In this document: positions 4,069-19,257 of the stretch, piece by piece
Numbering within the stretch: the first letter of the stretch is position 1
How the letters are laid out: every line of letters begins with the position of its first letter
NCBI GenBank assembly: GCA_009377435.1
Contig: WHUC01000001.1
Coordinates: forward strand, 200 to 64,199
Origin: Acidimicrobiia bacterium
GTDB taxonomy: Bacteria; Actinomycetota; Acidimicrobiia; Spongiisociales; ZC4RG35
Reading direction: 5' to 3'
Length of the DNA: 64,000 nucleotides
The notes under the pieces: generated by a model
The model's input: the letters and a program-made list of their open reading frames with translations, nothing else
Told to the model about the DNA's origin: nothing
Databases searched by the model: none
Translations under genes and position numbers: made by a program

Positions 4069-6672
4069 TTGAACCAAGAAGACAAACCCACTCTCGCCCT
4101 CATTGACGGCAATTCGATCGCCTACCGCGCCTTCTTCGCACTGCCCGAGGAGCTTGCCACCACCAGCGGGCAGCAGACCAACGCCGTCTTTGGGTTCACC
4201 CGGATGCTGATACGACTGCTCACCGATCACGACCCCGATGGACTCGCCGTCGCCTGGGATGTCTCCCGCCGGTCGTTCCGGACCGATGAGTATCCCGAGT
4301 ACAAGGCGCAACGGGCATCGGCGCCCGATGCCTTCCGGTCGCAACTCCCCCTCATCGACGAGGTCCTCGATGCGCTCGGGATCACCCAGCTCCGCGTCGA
4401 GGGATTCGAGGCCGACGACATCATCGCCACGGTGGCGCGCAAGGCCGCCGCCGACGGCTGGCAGGTGTTGGTGGTCACCGGCGATCGTGACGCCTTCCAA
4501 CTCATCGACGATGGCATCACGGTCGTCTACACCCGGCGGGGGATCAGCGACGTCGTCATGGCGACGGGGGAGTGGGTCGAGGAGAAGTACTCCATCAAAC
4601 CGACCGACTACGTCCCCTACGCCGCCCTGCGGGGTGACAACTCCGACAATCTTCCCGGTGTCACCGGTGTCGGTGAGAAACGGGCGGCCGAGCTGATCAC
4701 CAAGTACGGGTCACTCGATGAGATCTTCGCCCATCTCGACGAGCAGACACCGAAGTTGGGGGAGAACCTCGCACTCGCCCGCGAGCAGGTGCTCCTCAAC
4801 GAACGGCTCATGACCCTCGTCGACGACATGGAACTCGGCACCGAGACCGATTCGCTCCGTCTGGCACCGTGGGACCGCACGGTGGTCGAGCCCCTGTTCG
4901 ACAGTCTCGAGTTCCACAGTTTGTGGGAGGATCTCCTCGCGGTGACCGACGCCGCCGCCACCGAGATGACCATCCTCGACGTGGAGACGGTCATCGACAC
5001 CTCGGGCCAGAAGCTGGCCGATATGGTGGCGAGCTCCTCCGTGGTCGCGATCGAGCCGGTTGAGGCGGGAGGTGAGATCTGGGGATTCGCCGTGTCCGCC
5101 GGGGGAGACCGCGCCATCGCGGTGCCCCTCGATGTTGCCCTCGAGGGGCTGGATGACGCCGACGTCGTCGGTCATGACATCAAGGAGACCCTACGTCGCC
5201 TCGGCACCATCCCATTCCAGCGGCTGGCCATGGACACTGCCCTGGCGTCCTACGTGATCAACCCGACGGCCCGCCAATACGACCTGGATGGGCTCGCCGA
5301 GAAGTACCTGTCGGTCGAGCTGGTGTCCCCGGACCGAACCGACGAGCAGACAACCCTGTTCGACATGGGCCCTGACACCAAAGCGGCCGGGAATCGGGCC
5401 GTTGTGGTGGCCCGACTCGCCGATCTGCTCCGCGAGGAGCTCGACAACCGCCACGAGTTGGATTTGTTCGTGGGGCTCGAGTTGCCGCTGATCCCGGTCC
5501 TCGCCCAGATGGAGTACTGGGGCATCGGGATCGATGTCGACTACCTGCGTGGCCTCGGCGACGATCTCCGGGTCCGACTCGCGGAGCTTCAGACGGAGAT
5601 ATACGAGACGGCCGGCGTCGAGTTCAATCTCAACTCACCCGATCAGCTCCGCGAGATCCTCTTCGATCGTCTCGAGCTTCCCGTGATCAAGAAGACCTCG
5701 ACCGGCCGGCCCTCGACGGATGCGTCCGTTCTCGAGAAGCTGGACCACCCCATCACCGACGGCCTCCTCAGATACCGTGAGTTGGAGAAGCTCCGCTCCA
5801 CGTACGTCGACGGATATCTTCCGCTCGTCGGGAACGACGGTCGCATCCACACCCGTTTCAATCAGATGACGGCGGCAACCGGTCGTCTCTCCTCGGATCG
5901 CCCCAATCTGCAGAACATCCCCATCCGCAGCGAGGAGGGCCGCACCATCCGTCGGGCGTTCGTGTCCGAGCCGGGTCATGTGTTCCTCGTTGCCGACTAC
6001 TCCCAGATCGAGTTGCGAATCCTCGCCCACCTCAGTGGCGACCCGGGGCTGGTGGAGACCTTCCGCTCCGGTGGGGACGTCCACACCACCACGGCCTCAC
6101 GGGTGTGGCGGGTTTCCGAGAGCGAAGTCACGACCGAGATGCGACGTCGCTCGAAGATGATCAACTTCGGTCTCCTCTATGGGATGGAGGCTTACGGTCT
6201 GGCGAGTCGTCTCGGGATTTCCAGGGACGAGGCCAAACACCACATGGACACCTACTTCGAGCAGTTCCCCCGGGTGAGGGAGTTCCTCTCCGGGGTTGTC
6301 GACGAGGCGCGACGTCTCGGGTACACCACGACCATGTTCGGTCGGCGTCGCTATCTCCCCGAGTTGAAGAGCGACAACTTCAGGATCCGCCAGATGGGGG
6401 AGAGGATGGCCCTCAATGCCCCGGTTCAGGGAACCGCCGCCGACGTCATCAAGAAGGCGATGATCGAGCTCGACCACAGTCTTCGCTCGGCCGGGTCAGG
6501 GGCGCGGCAGTTGCTGCAGATCCACGACGAGTTGATCCTCGAGGTTCCCGACGACGAGATCGAGGAGACGACCCGGGTGACGGTGGCGACGATGGAGGGG
6601 ATCGCCGAGCTCGACGTGCCCCTCAAGGTCGAGCCGTTGACCGCCACCAATCTGGCCGACGCCAAGGACTAG
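4069..6672 (+). CDS. polA: DNA polymerase I
   Basis: 867 aa. 5'-3' exonuclease N-terminus (LIDGNSIAYRAFFAL), polymerase motifs (DYSQIELRILAHLS, QGTAADVIKKAM). TTG start. Confidence 0.95.
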   Translation: MNQEDKPTLALIDGNSIAYRAFFALPEELATTSGQQTNAVFGFTRMLIRLLTDHDPDGLAVAWDVSRRSFRTDEYPEYKAQRASAPDAFRSQLPLIDEVLDALGITQLRVEGFEADDIIATVARKAAADGWQVLVVTGDRDAFQLIDDGITVVYTRRGISDVVMATGEWVEEKYSIKPTDYVPYAALRGDNSDNLPGVTGVGEKRAAELITKYGSLDEIFAHLDEQTPKLGENLALAREQVLLNERLMTLVDDMELGTETDSLRLAPWDRTVVEPLFDSLEFHSLWEDLLAVTDAAATEMTILDVETVIDTSGQKLADMVASSSVVAIEPVEAGGEIWGFAVSAGGDRAIAVPLDVALEGLDDADVVGHDIKETLRRLGTIPFQRLAMDTALASYVINPTARQYDLDGLAEKYLSVELVSPDRTDEQTTLFDMGPDTKAAGNRAVVVARLADLLREELDNRHELDLFVGLELPLIPVLAQMEYWGIGIDVDYLRGLGDDLRVRLAELQTEIYETAGVEFNLNSPDQLREILFDRLELPVIKKTSTGRPSTDASVLEKLDHPITDGLLRYRELEKLRSTYVDGYLPLVGNDGRIHTRFNQMTAATGRLSSDRPNLQNIPIRSEEGRTIRRAFVSEPGHVFLVADYSQIELRILAHLSGDPGLVETFRSGGDVHTTTASRVWRVSESEVTTEMRRRSKMINFGLLYGMEAYGLASRLGISRDEAKHHMDTYFEQFPRVREFLSGVVDEARRLGYTTTMFGRRRYLPELKSDNFRIRQMGERMALNAPVQGTAADVIKKAMIELDHSLRSAGSGARQLLQIHDELILEVPDDEIEETTRVTVATMEGIAELDVPLKVEPLTATNLADAKD

Positions 6673-6786: not shown

Positions 6787-8364
6787 ATGTCCACAGAGCA
6801 CAGGCCCGCGTTCCCGGAAACGGAGACGCCCGAGATCGAAGCGACCCCCGAGGCGGTAGAGGAAACCCCCGCCGAGGAGACCAGCGACGAGACGACCTCC
6901 CTGGAAACACCCACGGAGGAAGCAACAACAGACGAAGCCCCCGCCGATGACGTCCCCTCCGATGACGCCCCCGTTGGGGCCTCCGCCGACACCGACGCGT
7001 CCCCGGAGGTGGGGAAGGGCGCGCCCAGTGACACCGATGGGGGCGGGCGTGGCGGTATCGACAAAGTGGATTACGGCACCGGACCCGCGGTGATCGTCGC
7101 CCCCGATCTCTCCGATCTTCCCGACGACATCGCCGACGATTTCGAGGCGGCCATCGAGGCCACCGTTCTCGAGTTCAGCGAGGGTGACATCGTCGGCGGC
7201 ACCGTGGTCAGTGTCGACCAGGATGGCGCCATGGTGGACATCGGTTACAAGTCCGAGGGTCTCATCCCCGTCTCCGAGCTTTCCATCCGCAACAGCATCA
7301 GCCCCGACGCGGTGGTCAATGTCGGCGACCACGTCGAGGCACTCGTCCTCGACAAGGAGGACGACGAGGGCCGGCTCATCCTCTCCAAGAAGCGTGCGCA
7401 GTACGAGCGGGCGTGGGGCCGGGTGCAGCAGGTCGCCAAGGAAGAGGGCACCGTCCACGGAACCGTCATCGAGGTGGTCAAGGGTGGTCTCATCGTCGAC
7501 ATCGGTCTCCGCGGATTCCTCCCGGCCTCACTCGTCGATCTCCGACGGGTCCGTGATCTCCAGCCGTATATCGGTGAGGAGATCGATGCCAAGGTCATCG
7601 AGTTGGATCGGTCCCGCAACAACGTCGTCCTTTCCCGTCGCGCCCACCTTGAGGACGAGCAGGCCGAGCAGCGGCAGGCGTTTCTCGACGATCTCGCCGT
7701 CGGCGAGGTCCGTGAGGGTGTCGTCTCGTCGGTGGTCAACTTCGGCGCATTTGTCGATCTCGGTGGCATGGACGGGCTCGTCCACGTCTCGGAGTTGTCA
7801 TGGCAACACGTCAACCACCCCGGTGAGATGGTTTCGGTCGGCGACGATGTCACCATCAAGGTGCTCGAGGTGGACCAGGACCGAGAGCGAATCTCCCTGT
7901 CCATCCGCCAGACCCAGGACGACCCGTGGGATGTCTTCTCCCGGGATCACGAGGTCGGTGAGATCGTGGACGGTCAGGTCACCAAGACCGTCCCCTTCGG
8001 TGCCTTTGTCTCCGTCGCCGACGGTGTCGAGGGTCTCGTCCACGTCTCCGAGATCGCCGTCCACAGGGTGGAGTCGCCCGAGCTGGAGCTGTCCATCGGA
8101 CAGCCGGTCCGGGTCAAGATCACCGAGAAGGAAGACGAGCGCCGCCGTATCTCGCTCTCGATCAAGCAGGCCCTCCCCGATTACAAGGAGCGTCAGGCCG
8201 CAGCCGCCCAGGAACAGCAGCAGCAGGGCCGGCGTCGTCCTCCCCGTCGCGAGTTCGAGCGTGAGTTCGGGCCCAAGGAAGAGGAGCGCCCCCCGATGCC
8301 GGTGGACGCCTCGCTCGAGGCCATCCTCCAGGAGCTCAAGGAACGGGGCATCGGCCGCCGCTAG
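6787..8364 (+). CDS. rpsA: 30S ribosomal protein S1, with an unusual ~100-aa acidic N-terminal extension if the first ATG is used
   Basis: Four S1 repeats (GDIVGGTVVSVD..., GTVHGTVIEVVKGGLIVDIG..., GEVREGVVSSVVNFGAFVDLG..., GEIVDGQVTKTVPFGAFVSV). The conserved S1 core begins near 7090. An alternative GTG lies near 7063. Confidence 0.9.
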   Translation: MSTEHRPAFPETETPEIEATPEAVEETPAEETSDETTSLETPTEEATTDEAPADDVPSDDAPVGASADTDASPEVGKGAPSDTDGGGRGGIDKVDYGTGPAVIVAPDLSDLPDDIADDFEAAIEATVLEFSEGDIVGGTVVSVDQDGAMVDIGYKSEGLIPVSELSIRNSISPDAVVNVGDHVEALVLDKEDDEGRLILSKKRAQYERAWGRVQQVAKEEGTVHGTVIEVVKGGLIVDIGLRGFLPASLVDLRRVRDLQPYIGEEIDAKVIELDRSRNNVVLSRRAHLEDEQAEQRQAFLDDLAVGEVREGVVSSVVNFGAFVDLGGMDGLVHVSELSWQHVNHPGEMVSVGDDVTIKVLEVDQDRERISLSIRQTQDDPWDVFSRDHEVGEIVDGQVTKTVPFGAFVSVADGVEGLVHVSEIAVHRVESPELELSIGQPVRVKITEKEDERRRISLSIKQALPDYKERQAAAAQEQQQQGRRRPPRREFEREFGPKEEERPPMPVDASLEAILQELKERGIGRR

Positions 8365-8385: not shown

Positions 8386-8946
8386 ATGACCCTTCATCTC
8401 GTGACCGGGGGCATCGGCACCGGAAAGAGCCTCGTCACCACCGGATTGGCGGCTCTGGGCTGGGACACCGCCGACGCCGACAAGATCGGTCACCTCGTGC
8501 TCACCGACGAGGCGCGGGAAGACGTCGCCGACCGGTTTCCCACCGTTGTCACCGACGAGGGTTCGATCGATCGCGGCCGTCTGGGTGCGATCGTGTTCGC
8601 CGACGAAAGGGCCCTCACCGACCTCGAGGCGCTAACCCATCCCCATATCCGCCGTCGCATCGAGGAGCTGGCCGGGGGCGAAGTCGTGCTCGAAGCCTCC
8701 GACCCCTCGGTCGACCTACTCGACGTCGCCACCACCGTCATCGTCGTCGACGCACCGGAATCGGTAAGACGGGGGCGGCTCATCGCCCGAGGGATGACCC
8801 CCGACGACATCGACCGGCGCATGGCCAACCAACCAGACCGGGCCGAATGGCTCGCCCTCGCCGACATGGTCATCCCCAACGAAGGCTCCCTCACCCAACT
8901 CGACACCCGCATCGCGACGCTCCACACCTGGCTCACCACCCGCTGA
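8386..8946 (+). CDS. coaE: dephospho-CoA kinase
   Basis: P-loop GGIGTGKS. Conserved rpsA-coaE adjacency of Actinobacteria. Confidence 0.9.
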   Translation: MTLHLVTGGIGTGKSLVTTGLAALGWDTADADKIGHLVLTDEAREDVADRFPTVVTDEGSIDRGRLGAIVFADERALTDLEALTHPHIRRRIEELAGGEVVLEASDPSVDLLDVATTVIVVDAPESVRRGRLIARGMTPDDIDRRMANQPDRAEWLALADMVIPNEGSLTQLDTRIATLHTWLTTR

Positions 8947-9044
8947 CACCCCCGTTTTCGCGCGGCTGGGCAGGCACATATGACCGGCTAGCCGCGCGAA
9001 AACGGTAATTCGGACCACCGGTATCATGTGATTCGGAGGTCCTC

Positions 9045-11054
9045 ATTCCCGAGTTTCGTGTTCATTCCGAGTTTCGCCCGTCCGGTGACCAACCCGCTGC
9101 CATCGAGGCGTTGTCCCGTGGGATAAACGGCGGCGACCGGTTCCAGACCCTCCTCGGCATCACCGGATCGGGGAAGTCGGCGACGGTGGCGTGGACCATC
9201 GAGCAGGTGCAGAAGCCAACCCTGGTCCTGGCACCGAACAAGGCCCTCGCCGCCCAGCTGGCCAATGAGTATCGGCAGTTCTTCCCCGAGAACCGGACCG
9301 AGTACTTCGTCAGCTACTACGACTACTACCAGCCCGAGGCGTACATCCCGCAGACGGACACCTTCATCGAGAAGGACGCCACCATCAACGACGAGATCGA
9401 CCGGCTCCGTCACGCCGCCACCTCGGCCCTGTTGGTCCGTAACGACGTGATCATCGTCGCCTCGGTATCGGCGATCTACGGTCTGGGTTCGCCGGAGCAG
9501 TATAAGGGTCAGCTCCTCCGCCTGGTCCGTGGTGTCGAGTACCCCATGGGCGACGCCCTGCGTCGTCTCGTCGACATCCAGTACGAGCGCAACGAGGTCA
9601 ATCTGATCCGGGGGAAGTTCCGGGTAAAGGGGGACACCCTCGAGATCTTCCCCTCCTACACCGAGACCATCCTCCGCATCGAGTTCTGGGGCGACGAGGT
9701 GGAGCGGATCCTCCAGATGGACCCGATCACCGGCGAGGTGATGGAAGAGCTGTCGGAGGCGTTCATCTTCCCGGCGACCCACTACGTTACCGAGAAGGAG
9801 CGCATGCTCATCGCCGTGGGGAAGATCGAAGACGAGCTCACCGACCAGTTGGCGCTGATGGAGCGCAAGGGGAAGCTCCTCGAGGCGCAACGGCTCCGGA
9901 TGCGCACCAACTACGACCTGGAGATGATGCGGGAGATCGGGTTCTGCTCCGGTATCGAGAACTACTCACGTCATCTCGATGGCCGCCGGCCGGGGGAGGC
10001 CCCCTACACACTCCTCGACTACTTCCCCGACGACTATCTCACCATCATCGACGAGTCCCATGTCACCATTCCCCAGATCGGGGGTCAGTACCAAGGCGAC
10101 CGTTCTCGCAAGGACGTCCTCGTCGAACACGGCTTCCGTCTTCCCTCGGCGATGGACAACCGCCCCCTCCGCTTCGACGAGTGGCTGGATCGGTCCAACC
10201 AGGTCGTCTTCCTCTCCGCCACTCCCGGTCCCTTCGAGCTGGAGCACTCCACCGCCGTGGTGGAACAGATCGCCCGACCCACGGGATTGGTCGATCCCGA
10301 GGTGGTCGTCCGACCCACCAAGGGTCAGATCGACGACCTCCTCGCCGAGATCCGCAGCCGAGCCGAGGCGGAGACCCGGGTGCTCGTCACCACCCTCACC
10401 AAGAAGATGGCGGAGGATCTCACCGACTATCTCCTTGAGATGGGGGTACGGGCGCGATACCTCCACTCCGAGATCGACACGCTGGAACGAGTCCAGATCC
10501 TGCGCGAGCTGCGACTGGGTGACTTCGATGTCCTGGTGGGGATCAACCTCCTCCGTGAGGGGCTCGATCTCCCCGAGGTCTCCCTGGTGGCCATCCTCGA
10601 TGCCGACAAGGAGGGATTTCTCCGCTCGGACACATCGCTCATCCAGATCATCGGACGGGCGGCGAGACACGTCGACGGACAGGTCATCATGTACGCCGAC
10701 AGCGTGACCCGGTCCATGCAGCACGCCCTCAACGAGACCAACCGACGGCGTCGGCTCCAACTCGAGTTCAACGAGGAGCACGGGATCGATCCCCAGTCGG
10801 TCCGCAAGGGGGTCTCCGACATCCTCGAGCTCATCCAGTCGCCGACCACCCCCGGTGACCGGCGTCGTCGTGACACCGAGCGACGGGCCCCGATCGAGCT
10901 CGAGGGTGAGGATCTCTCCCGTCTGGTGCTGTCATTGGAGGAGGAGATGCACGAGGCGGCGAAGGAGCTCCGCTTCGAGTACGCCGCCCGTCTCCGCGAC
11001 GAGATCAACGAACTGAAACGGGACCTCAAGGAAGCCGGTCAAGCCGCCGGCTAA
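9045..11054 (+). CDS. uvrB: excinuclease ABC subunit B
   Basis: Conserved N-terminus [20 protein letters not shown], Walker [17 protein letters not shown], helicase motifs, and the C-terminal UvrB/UvrC interaction region. No ATG/GTG/TTG lies upstream of the conserved motif. An in-frame ATT at 9045 is preceded by GGAGG with a 5-nt spacer. The first canonical start is TTG at 9111. Confidence 0.85.
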
Positions 11055-16256: not shown

Positions 16257-19121
16257 ATGTCGGGGGGTGAAACTACAGTGGTGTTGTCCGCTGCCACGGG
16301 TTGGTTCGTGTCCGAAATCGTGATCCGCGGGGCCAGGGAGCACAACCTCAAGGATCTCACGCTCACCCTGCCCCGAGACAAGCTCATCGTCTTCACCGGC
16401 ATCTCCGGCTCCGGCAAGTCGTCGCTCGCCTTCGACACCATCTATGCCGAGGGCCAGCGGCGCTATGTCGAGTCCCTCTCGGCGTATGCCCGCCAGTTCC
16501 TCGGCCAGATGGAGAAGCCCGACGTCGAGCATATCGACGGTCTCTCACCGGCCATCTCCATCGACCAGAAGACGGCGAGCCGCAACCCCCGCTCCACGGT
16601 GGGCACCGTCACCGAGATCTGGGACTATCTCCGGCTCCTCTACGCCCGCATCGGCATTCCCCACTGTCCTAATGACGGTCTCGAGGTGAAGCGCCAGACC
16701 GCCCAGCAGATCGTCGACCAGATCCTCGAACTCGAAGAGGGCACCCGTTTCCAGGTGCTCGCCCCCGTGGTCCGAGGACGCAAGGGGGAGTACGAGCAGC
16801 TCCTCAAGGACCTCGCCAAGGACGGTTTCGCCCGGGCCCGCATCGACGGCGAGGTGCGCGACCTCACCGAGGAGATCCGTCTCGACCGCTACTACCAGCA
16901 CACCATCGAGGTGGTGGTCGACCGTCTCGTCAGCAAGGAGGGCATCGACCAGCGTCTCACCCAGTCGTTGGAGACCGCCCTCGAGCTCGCCGATGGCACC
17001 GTCGAGATCGACATCATCGATGGGGACGTCCTCAGCTTCTCCCAGCATCTCGCCTGTCCCAACGGCGACTTCTCCTTCGAGGAGCTCCAGCCCCGCAACT
17101 TCTCGTTCAACAGCCCCTACGGCGCATGCCCGGCGTGTAATGGGCTGGGGACCCGCCACCAGGTCGATCCCGGTCTGGTCATCCCCGACCCCGAACGCTC
17201 CCTCTCCGAGGGTGCCGTCGCCATGTGGGGTGGCAACCGGAGCCGGTATCACCAGCGGGTGGTGGCCGCCGTCGCCGAGAGCCACGCCTTCGACATGGAG
17301 ACACCGTGGGAGGATCTCGGCGAGGACATCCAGAAGATGATCCTCGAGGGGAGTGGCGACGAGACCTACCACGTCACCTACACCAACCGTTTCGGTCGCC
17401 GGCGCCGCTATGACACCACCTTCGAGGGGGCGATGCCGTTCCTGTTGCGTCGTCACGAGAACGCCGACTCCGATTCCGCCCGTCGCTACTACGAGGAGTA
17501 CATGGCGGAGGTGCCCTGCGATGTATGTGGGGGTGGCCGGCTCAACGATGTAGCCCTGGCCGTCACCGTGGCCGGACACAACATCGCCGCCATCGCCGAC
17601 CGGTCACTGGCTGACGCCATGGAGACCCTGGGCGCCCTTGAGCTCTCCGACCGGGACGCCACCATCGCCCTCCAGATCCTCAAAGAGATCACGGCCCGTA
17701 TCGGCTTCCTTCTCGATGTCGGCCTCGACTACCTCACCCTGAGCCGGTCGGCTGCGACCCTCGCCGGGGGAGAGGCGCAACGCATTCGCCTCGCCACCCA
17801 GATCGGCTCCGGTCTCGTCGGGGTCCTCTACATCCTCGACGAGCCCTCCATCGGTCTCCACCAGAGGGACAACCAGCGTCTCATCGAGACCCTTATCCGG
17901 TTGCGTGACCTGGGCAACACCCTCATCGTCGTCGAGCACGACGAGGACACGATGCGCACCGCCGATCACATCGTCGACATCGGGCCGGGTGCCGGTGAGC
18001 ACGGCGGTGAGATCGTGGCCGAGGGTGACCTCGAGGCGATCTGCGCCGCCGAGAACTCACTGACCGGCGACTACATGAGTGGTCGCCGCCGTATTGAGAT
18101 CCCCGAGGTCCGCCGCAAGGGCAGCGGGGAGACCCTGTCCGTGATCGGGGCCACCGAGAACAACCTCACCGACATCGACGTCCATTTTCCCCTGGGCACC
18201 TTCACCGCGGTGACCGGGGTGTCAGGGTCGGGGAAGTCAACCCTGGTGGAGGAGGTCCTCTCCAAGGCACTACGTCAGCAGCTCAACCGCGCCCGCTCCG
18301 TCCCCGGACGACATCGGCGTGTCGAGGGCGCGGAGCACATCGACAAGCTCATCGACATCGACCAGTCGCCCATCGGCCGCACCCCGCGGAGCAACCCCGC
18401 CACGTACTCGGGTGTGTTCGACCACATCCGGGCCCTGTTCGCCTCGACACCGGAATCCCGGGCCCGTGGCTACAAACCAGGACGGTTCTCCTTCAATGTC
18501 AAGGGTGGGCGATGCGAGGCCTGCTCCGGTGACGGGACCATCAAGATCGAGATGCACTTCCTCCCCGACGTCTACGTCCTATGCGAGGTGTGTGGTGGTA
18601 AGCGGTACAACCGTGACACCCTCGACATCACCTGGAAGGGCCACACCATCTCCGATGTCCTCCGCATGTCGGTCGACGAGGCCCTCGATGTGTTCTCCAA
18701 CCAGCCCAAGATCGTCCGCATCCTCCAGACCCTCCATGACGTCGGTCTCACCTACGTCCGCCTCGGCCAACCGGCCACCACCCTCTCCGGTGGCGAGGCG
18801 CAACGCATCAAGCTGGCGTCGGAGTTGGGGCGCCGATCCACGGGGCGCACCTTCTACATCCTCGACGAGCCCACCACCGGTCTCCACTTCGACGACATCC
18901 GCAAACTCCTCAATGTCCTCCACCGTCTCGTCGACTCCGGCAACACCGTCATAGTGATCGAACACAACCTCGACGTCATCAAGTCGGTCGACCACATCAT
19001 CGATCTCGGCCCCGAGGGAGGCTTCGCCGGGGGCGCCGTCGTCGTCACCGGCACACCCGAGGAGGTCGCCGAGATGTCCGAGAGCTACACCGGCAAGTTT
19101 CTCCGTGAGGTCGTCGGGTGA
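16257..19121 (+). CDS. uvrA: excinuclease ABC subunit A
   Basis: [44 protein letters not shown], two ABC modules, and zinc-finger cysteines. 955 aa from the ATG at 16257. Confidence 0.95.
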
Positions 19122-19222
19122 TCAGCGGGTTAACACAACGCGAAAACAAATCAGCGTTTCGACTTTACAGACCCGTCTGATCCGTTATTGTTCTTCATGG
19201 AAGCGATTCGTCGCTTCTCGAA

Positions 19223-19257
19223 CCGCCCAGCGGCCCTAGCGGTCACTGGGCGGTTTT
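19223..19257 (+). terminator. rho-independent terminator after uvrA
   Basis: CCGCCCAG-(15 nt loop)-CTGGGCGG followed by TTTT. Confidence 0.5.

Follow-up and report, generated by a model that had tools for sequence, protein, structure and literature searches.

The stretch of DNA analysed here, called the window, comprises 64,000 nucleotides (nt) of contig WHUC01000001.1 from an Acidimicrobiia bacterium (assembly GCA_009377435.1) and carries the DNA-repair gene uvrB on its forward strand. In the uvrB frame, made up of positions divisible by 3, a TAA stop at 9006-9008 is followed by an open stretch from 9009 to the stop codon at 11052-11054. Direct reading, the list of open reading frames (ORFs) and the translation agree that no ATG, GTG or TTG lies in frame between that TAA and the TTG at 9111. 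The conserved N-terminal residues of UvrB are encoded from 9048, and a start at the TTG would cost 22 conserved residues, including GDQP. Immediately before 9048 stands an ATT, separated from GGAGG at 9035-9039 by the five nucleotides TCCTC.

A preliminary description of the window had reported the missing canonical start, the loss of the conserved motif with a TTG start, the spacing of the ATT from GGAGG and a GTG at 9028 in the +1 frame. All four readings are borne out. The AUU initiation that it preferred is supported by the start position of orthologues and by the same ATT and GGAGG in the closest relative. We consider it likely that uvrB is translated from the AUU at 9045-9047 behind GGAGG(U) as a full-length UvrB of the short form and that the ATT is ancestral; it would then set a low, probably IF3-sensitive level of synthesis (IF3, initiation factor 3). 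The coordinates of all features are collected in Table 1.

Table 1. Features of the uvrB start region and of the loci compared with it. Positions without a prefix are those of the window.
Feature	Position	Strand	Basis or remark
uvrB coding sequence, 669 codons and stop	9045-11054	+	Translation, Pfam domains, PDB matches, gap-free alignment with L081
Proposed uvrB initiation codon ATT	9045-9047	+	Homologous to the ATG/GTG start of orthologues; ATT also at L081:730-732
Shine-Dalgarno sequence GGAGGT	9035-9040	+	GGAGG at 9035-9039, 5 nt 5' of ATT; same GGAGGT in L081 with a 6-nt spacer
First canonical in-frame start TTG	9111-9113	+	Used by the public gene call P0001 (647 amino acids)
Out-of-frame ATG-TGA start-stop	9026-9031	+	14 nt 5' of ATT; no Shine-Dalgarno sequence; absent from L081
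GTG in the +1 frame	9028-9030	+	32 codons to stop; overlaps ATG-TGA; absent from L081; not the uvrB start
-10-like TATCAT (TAnnnT)	9022-9027	+	Direct reading, role inferred; in the CGGTAnCAT block common to L081
Near-exact direct repeat	9044-9076	+	CATTCCCGAGTTTCG (9044-9058) and CATTCCGAGTTTCG (9063-9076); encodes (I)PEFR and HSEFR
Stem-loop with perfect 16-bp stem	8952-9005	+	Arms 8952-8967 and 8990-9005; begins 5 nt after the coaE stop
coaE-like gene (dephospho-CoA kinase)	8386-8946	+	ORF; stop TGA 8944-8946; tblastn 45% to the L132 gene
PafBC-like elements before uvrB	L132:2470-2500; L001:1224-1253; L006:1470-1500		
Desulforudis-like uvrB start, ATT	L110, 1161 nt into the reverse complement	-	
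Desulforudis-like uvrB start, ATC	L116:661		

Where orthologous UvrB proteins start

In the protein database the product of this gene is present only in its TTG-started form of 647 amino acids (P0001, with one member from one contig). Its Pfam domains are ResIII, UvrB_inter, UvrB_3rd, Helicase_C, UvrB and UVR, which is the full UvrB set. The ATT-started protein matches UvrB structures in PDB from residue 2-4, with E about 1e-65, and these residues align to residues 3-5 of the solved short-form UvrBs of 658-661 amino acids. The N-terminal length had been described as matching mycobacterial UvrB, which is incorrect: in the Mycobacterium tuberculosis protein (9ga3_E) the counterpart of residue 4 of the ATT-started protein is residue 29, mycobacterial uvrB loci have their start 37 codons ahead of the GDQ glycine, and the ATT-started protein has the short-form length.

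The orthologue scan, run over contigs with one genome per species, returned 80 uvrB loci, of which 78 could be anchored on GDQ. The best locus is only 76% identical, followed by Ilumatobacteraceae/Acidimicrobiaceae at 68%, which marks the genome of the window as being of the Acidimicrobiia type. All 78 anchorable loci have a canonical start on the 5' side of the conserved Phe. In a large group of these the start lies exactly 13 codons ahead of the GDQ glycine and opens the sequence M-P-[P/E/A/D]-F; examples are L053 (MPEFR), L072 (MPEFQ), L057 (MPDFR) and L006 (MPPFK), together with L002, L016 and L001, the last with GTG. The ATT of the window occupies that same codon, 13 before the G of GDQP, and opens I-P-E-F-R. 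Only at L068 is the sole upstream canonical start, a GTG with its own Shine-Dalgarno (SD) sequence, far from the conserved Phe.

Relatives in the protein database at 82-85% identity are 668-669 amino acids long and begin with MPPF, MPAF or VPRF. All the relatives examined share the conserved N-terminal segment F-x-V-x-S-x-F/Y-x-P-x-GDQP-x-AI. The comparison of orthologous 5' regions, which the preliminary description had proposed as a check, thus places the ATT at the ATG or GTG start of the orthologues, and these start upstream of the conserved N-terminus and not at the TTG.

Conservation in the closest relative

The closest relative is the uvrB gene of L081 (P0002, protein MPZ54007.1, annotated as UvrB; contig WHTL01000242.1), from the metagenome-assembled genome (MAG) GCA_009377735.1, an independent assembly. 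From the ATT to the stop codon the two genes align over 669 codons with no gap, at 89.4% amino acid identity (89% to the annotated MPZ54007.1) and 81% nucleotide identity. Third positions are 56% identical, dS is about 1.06 and dN/dS is 0.065. These values place the two genes in well-separated lineages, with uvrB under strong purifying selection.

The low dN/dS also excludes pseudogenisation. A decaying gene that has lost its start codon would explain the missing canonical start, but all 669 codons are intact and free of gaps at this divergence, all UvrB domains are present, and uvrA is intact nearby (16308-19115). We regard decay as extremely improbable.

In L081 the uvrB frame is open from L081:685 and, as in the window, contains no ATG, GTG or TTG before the TTG equivalent to 9111. 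The start region reads TTGGAGGTTCCTC-ATT-CCT-GAG-TTT-CGT-GTT-CAT-TCT, that is, GGAGG, a 6-nt spacer, ATT and PEFRVHS. A sequencing or assembly error in the window could hide an ATG or displace by a 1-nt indel the GTG at 9028 that exists in the +1 frame; the indel was one of the alternatives raised earlier. The gene is known from a single contig seen once (P0001), an index of encoding contigs has no entry for the uvrB product, for coaE or for the gene downstream, and MAG assemblies do contain errors. However, an independent assembly of a different species shows the same ATT and no canonical start, so that the error would have to have occurred twice. L081 has no counterpart of the GTG or of the ATG upstream, and with a start at GTG 9028 the GGAGG would fall inside the coding sequence, leaving no SD sequence before the GTG. 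An error of this kind is very unlikely.

The 22 codons from ATT to TTG are kept between the two genomes with synonymous changes (CCC/CCT, TCC/TCT, CCG/CCT), and this conservation effectively excludes the TTG as the start. Gene callers did choose TTG 9111 for the window protein, and this codon is conserved in L081. Nevertheless, a protein begun there would lack 22 N-terminal residues from a segment that every relative examined retains and whose alignment to the solved UvrBs begins at chain residue 3-5; the codons before the TTG are open in frame, and it is preceded by GCCATCGAGGCG, with no SD sequence. We leave the truncated protein a very small probability.

Conservation of the coding kind begins at the ATT. 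The six codons on its 5' side would encode CDSEVL in the window but GGWRFL in L081, the register of GGAGG differs (spacers of 5 and 6 nt, respectively), and a CGGTAnCAT block common to both lies 17 nt before the ATT in the window and 19 nt before it in L081. The unlike protein sequence, the shift in register and the 2-nt difference in length together indicate that the upstream segment has been kept as a nucleotide motif, containing the SD sequence and possibly a -10 element, and not as protein. Beyond the CGGTAnCAT block the upstream sequences cannot be aligned, and L081 has no coaE neighbour.

This pattern bears on a start at some other non-canonical codon 5' of the ATT, for which GTC 9039, CTC 9042 and, in L081, ATA are candidates. 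GTC works as a start in Streptomyces sigR (PMC5472188), and the NCBI annotation begins the L081 protein at ATA L081:709, giving MGGWRFLIPEF. No such upstream codon is common to both genomes, however; GTC 9039 overlaps the SD sequence, and the ATA lies within the -10-like TAGCAT(A), with no SD sequence. Only the ATT is both conserved and properly spaced from GGAGG. Of the alternatives this is the least improbable, though still quite unlikely, and by comparison with the window the conserved ATT at L081:730 behind GGAGG makes a better start for L081 than the annotated ATA.

As background, each strand of the 64-kb window has 2.5 copies of GGAGG per kb, and the chance of finding it 4-9 nt before any given codon is roughly 1.5%. 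The GGAGG before the ATT is meaningful because it is kept in L081.

The preliminary description had also drawn attention to the near-exact direct repeat at the first codons. The repeat is present, with copies of 15 and 14 nt that differ by one C, but the special meaning suspected for it is not supported: L081 keeps the first copy, and the second has diverged to CATTCTGACTATCAG (HSDYQ). Slippage or an assembly artefact was considered as its origin and rejected, as both copies are in-frame coding sequence and the first is kept in L081. By its sequence, the repeat mirrors the F-x...F/Y-x-P pseudo-repeat found at the N-terminus of UvrB, and we do not regard it as a functional element. It is possible that the repeat took part in the origin of the ATT, through duplication of CAT TCC GAG TTT.

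Putative promoter and leader

As for transcription, uvrB may be transcribed from a weak promoter with the -10-like TATCAT located 17 nt before the ATT. Transcription would then start near 9034-9035, and the leader would be very short, about 10 nt. With TATCAT as the -10 element, ATG 9026 and GTG 9028 lie upstream of the transcript start and outside the mRNA, and a small hairpin at 9012-9042 cannot form. This hairpin, which covers the SD sequence, was tried as a regulator and rejected (z -1.2, not kept in L081). Folding of the uvrB 5' region from the predicted transcript start gives a structure that is not unusual (z +0.3 and +0.9). GC content dips to 55% between 9000 and 9099, which fits an intergenic or initiation region.

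The short leader also touches on a programmed -1 or +1 frameshift, or reinitiation from the GTG 9028 ORF or from ATG-TGA at 9026. The 32-codon ORF from GTG 9028 overlaps the uvrB start, and the ATG-TGA at 9026-9031 looks like a start-stop element. Nonetheless, there is no slippery heptamer (X XXY YYZ) at UCA UUC CCG, and neither the GTG nor the ATG has an SD sequence or a counterpart in L081. The absence of GTG 9028 from L081, together with a frame relation between upstream region and ATT that differs between the two genomes, excludes a frameshift from that codon, and we find recoding of any of these kinds scarcely credible. L081 thus contradicts each of the alternatives that had been put beside AUU initiation, namely the assembly indel, the programmed frameshift and the TTG start with a truncated N-terminus.

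The PafBC/RecA-NDp promoter consensus is tGTCgg-N10-tA(N3)T, with an invariant GTC (PMC8635444). At the uvrB loci of the outgroup Acidimicrobiia L132, L001 and L006 we find xGTCxx-N10-TAnnnT, where 6-8 nt separate the end of the -10 element from ATG or GTG and no SD sequence is present. L131 and L133 are alike except for TGAC instead of TGTC, and all five fit a leaderless pattern. These sequences suggest leaderless, damage-inducible uvrB transcripts in the outgroups.

L081 keeps a PafBC-like AGTCCC-N10-TAGCAT, located 19 nt before its ATT with the SD sequence in between. In the window, TAATTC stands where the GTC element would be, and the PafBC consensus is not matched; a search for TTGWC-N12-TAnnnT near uvrB and uvrA found none. 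Nor does the window have the leaderless layout, since an SD sequence is present and the ATT lies 17 nt after the -10-like hexamer. Thus the element of the PafBC leaderless promoters is found in L132, L001, L006 and L081, whereas the window has a leader with an SD sequence and AUU. Plausibly, a leaderless start, with its need for AUG or GUG, first gained a short SD leader, after which the ATG would have been free to drift, or to be selected, to ATT.

Recurrence of putative ATT and ATC starts in uvrB

We scanned metagenomes with the clade-specific motif PEFRVHS[DE][FY]..GDQP and, more widely, with the pattern ATH-CCN-x-TTY...GGN-GAY-CAR-CC, which describes an Ile-Pro-x-Phe..GDQP N-terminus. The wider pattern returned 49 loci. 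In nearly all of these a canonical ATG or TTG is available, either two codons further on (IPMF, or IPLF with TTG) or a few codons earlier. One of them, L107, is not uvrB and was rejected.

Only two of the 49 loci, L110 and L116, clearly have no canonical start before GDQP. They share a leader, TATAAT-N(8-9)-AGGAGGTGA-GGCGCG, followed by ATT in L110 or ATC in L116, and in both an in-frame TGA lies three codons upstream of this codon. Their UvrB is nearest to Candidatus Desulforudis / Peptococcaceae (Bacillota) proteins that begin MPPFKLVS, a lineage unrelated to that of the window. In the protein database the gene of the L116 type appears as a 13-member cluster (P0124), truncated to an internal GTG. 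There are thus at least two separate origins of ATT or ATC at this uvrB codon, both with a good SD sequence in front. Very many uvrB genes were scanned, and these finds are a matter of recurrence and not of enrichment.

A further uvrB locus, L101:3866-3894, reads ACGGAGGTGAATAAT-ATC-CCT-GAA-TTC, with the ATC 8 nt after GGAGG. No in-frame GTG is near except one that overlaps the SD sequence, and a TTG lies seven codons upstream, so the ATC start is ambiguous there, although possible.

The upstream hairpin and the gene neighbourhood

The coaE-like product matches the gene upstream of uvrB in the outgroup L132 (tblastn, 45%), which has the Pfam domain CoaE. A large hairpin follows the coaE-like gene. 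The preliminary description had placed its stem at 8951-9003; the perfect 16-bp stem is real, and its coordinates are corrected to 8952-9005. The pairing extends to arms of 25 nt with 84% complementarity. Its folding energy is -40.3 kcal/mol (z = -7.5, none of 200 shuffles folding as well), and no other short-range hairpin of the window is as strong. The arm was considered as a dispersed repeat and rejected, since the window holds no second copy.

A terminator scan found no U-tract 3' of the hairpin, where the stem is followed by UAAUUCGG, and by this test it is not a canonical intrinsic terminator. Terminators without a U-tract have been described in Actinobacteria. Rfam assigned no family to 8850-9200 and returned only sub-threshold matches to generic hairpins (miRNA). 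At the equivalent distance L081 has an unrelated significant hairpin (z -3.0), despite its other upstream neighbour; L132, in which the coaE-uvrB synteny is retained, has no such hairpin. We conclude that the structure is probably a terminator, an insulator or a 3'-stabilising stem-loop of the rpsA-coaE transcript, and it may end or insulate this transcript upstream of uvrB. The hairpin itself is real, and no mechanistic link between it and the AUU is supported.

The gene order in the window is a polA-sized ORF (4069-6672), rpsA (about 6787-8364), coaE, uvrB and, later, uvrA (16308-19115/19121), which resembles the mycobacterial neighbourhood polA-rpsA-coaE-uvrB...uvrA. An imperfect 15-bp hairpin (AACCGCCCAGCGGCC / GGTCACTGGGCGGTT) at 19221-19255, about 100 nt past the end of uvrA, is a candidate terminator without a U-tract. 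In L081, two direct-repeat copies, L081:32-201 and 410-579, about 80% identical and with a period of 378 nt, occupy the place of coaE. Lastly, infC-rpmI-rplT does not occur in the 64-kb window, so that no internal AUU control comes from infC.

Discussion

The signs of a near-cognate start come together at uvrB: no canonical start, a position homologous to that of orthologous starts, suitable SD spacing, and conservation in L081, the one comparison genome. We propose that the AUU at 9045-9047 is read by the initiator tRNA as a near-cognate start whose position is set by the GGAGG(U) 5 nt before it, and that the product would be a full-length short-form UvrB with Met at the AUU. The ATT would have been inherited from the common ancestor of the window genome and the L081 lineage.

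In terms of expression, AUU, AUC and AUA starts in Escherichia coli give about 1-2% (range 0.02-3%) of the output of AUG, and infC and pcnB are confirmed natural near-cognate starts in that organism (bioRxiv 10.1101/063800). By analogy with such measured starts, the AUU should yield at most a few percent of what AUG would give. It would also make uvrB translation sensitive to discrimination by IF3 and so lower the UvrB level.

Several points weigh against this interpretation. The case for the AUU start is comparative and concerns an uncultured organism, and the ATT clade has two known members, the window and L081, so that conservation comes from one comparison; the clade-specific motif gave 0 matches in the metagenome scan. 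GGAGG is common in this GC-rich window. A scan with the sigma-70 consensus found no promoter with a -35 element at uvrB, and by consensus the promoter is weak, with no -35. Finally, an ATG-to-ATT substitution that was tolerated and compensated by the SD sequence is, as judged from sequence, equally compatible with what we see as selection for low or IF3-tuned expression.

No paper in the literature searched links an AUU start codon to uvrB. The closest known cases are E. coli pcnB, where AUU limits poly(A) polymerase (bioRxiv 10.1101/063800), and Enterococcus faecalis ebpA, where ATT attenuates pilus expression (PMC4447247). In both, as here, a housekeeping or structural gene has an AUU behind an SD sequence as its only plausible start; they differ in that our gene is uvrB, from Acidimicrobiia, and that its effect on the protein level is inferred. 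The infC gene shares a near-cognate AUU or AUA start that IF3 discriminates against (PMC2830850). Its product, however, is the discriminator itself and closes a feedback loop, whereas UvrB would be at most a passive IF3-sensitive target. The analogy to infC autoregulation drawn earlier is thus unsupported, as UvrB is not IF3 and no autoregulatory loop follows.

In Deinococcus, an ATC start of dnaA was established by N-terminal proteomics, and an ATA start of infC was proposed from nucleotide alignment (PMC2830850). Like uvrB here, dnaA is a conserved gene of DNA metabolism whose ATH start is kept in close relatives, and canonical calls give it uneven or truncated N-termini. The starts of Deinococcus dnaA (ATC) and rpsL (CTG) come from mass spectrometry, whereas that of uvrB comes from sequence comparison. 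Streptomyces sigR, with a GTC start repressed by IF3 in a physiologically relevant manner (PMC5472188), is likewise an actinobacterial stress-response gene with a non-canonical start. It differs in that the codon is GTC and not ATT, the product is a regulator and not a repair enzyme, and IF3 dependence is demonstrated for sigR and predicted for uvrB. The AUU start of uvrB is thus a known oddity in a new gene and involves no new mechanism.

A more far-reaching scenario is that an ancestral damage-inducible, leaderless uvrB start of the PafBC type was replaced by a short SD leader and AUU, that control of nucleotide excision repair capacity moved from transcription to IF3 discrimination at the start codon, and that the ATT and ATC starts of the Desulforudis-like genes, behind their very strong SD sequence, are convergent. 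We hold this to be unlikely. If true, UvrB synthesis would rise with any loss of IF3 fidelity, as under stress or in slow growth.

Public gene calls are wrong in three ways at these loci, with truncation to a TTG in the window, extension to an ATA in L081 and, for the Desulforudis-like cluster, truncation to a GTG within the gene. Checks on conserved N-termini could recover genes that have been mis-annotated in this manner. With the proposed start, a core DNA-repair gene joins the few bacterial genes that have conserved AUU or AUC starts. This start also suggests that UvrB dosage may be set at translation, possibly through IF3, in lineages without the leaderless damage-inducible arrangement of their relatives.

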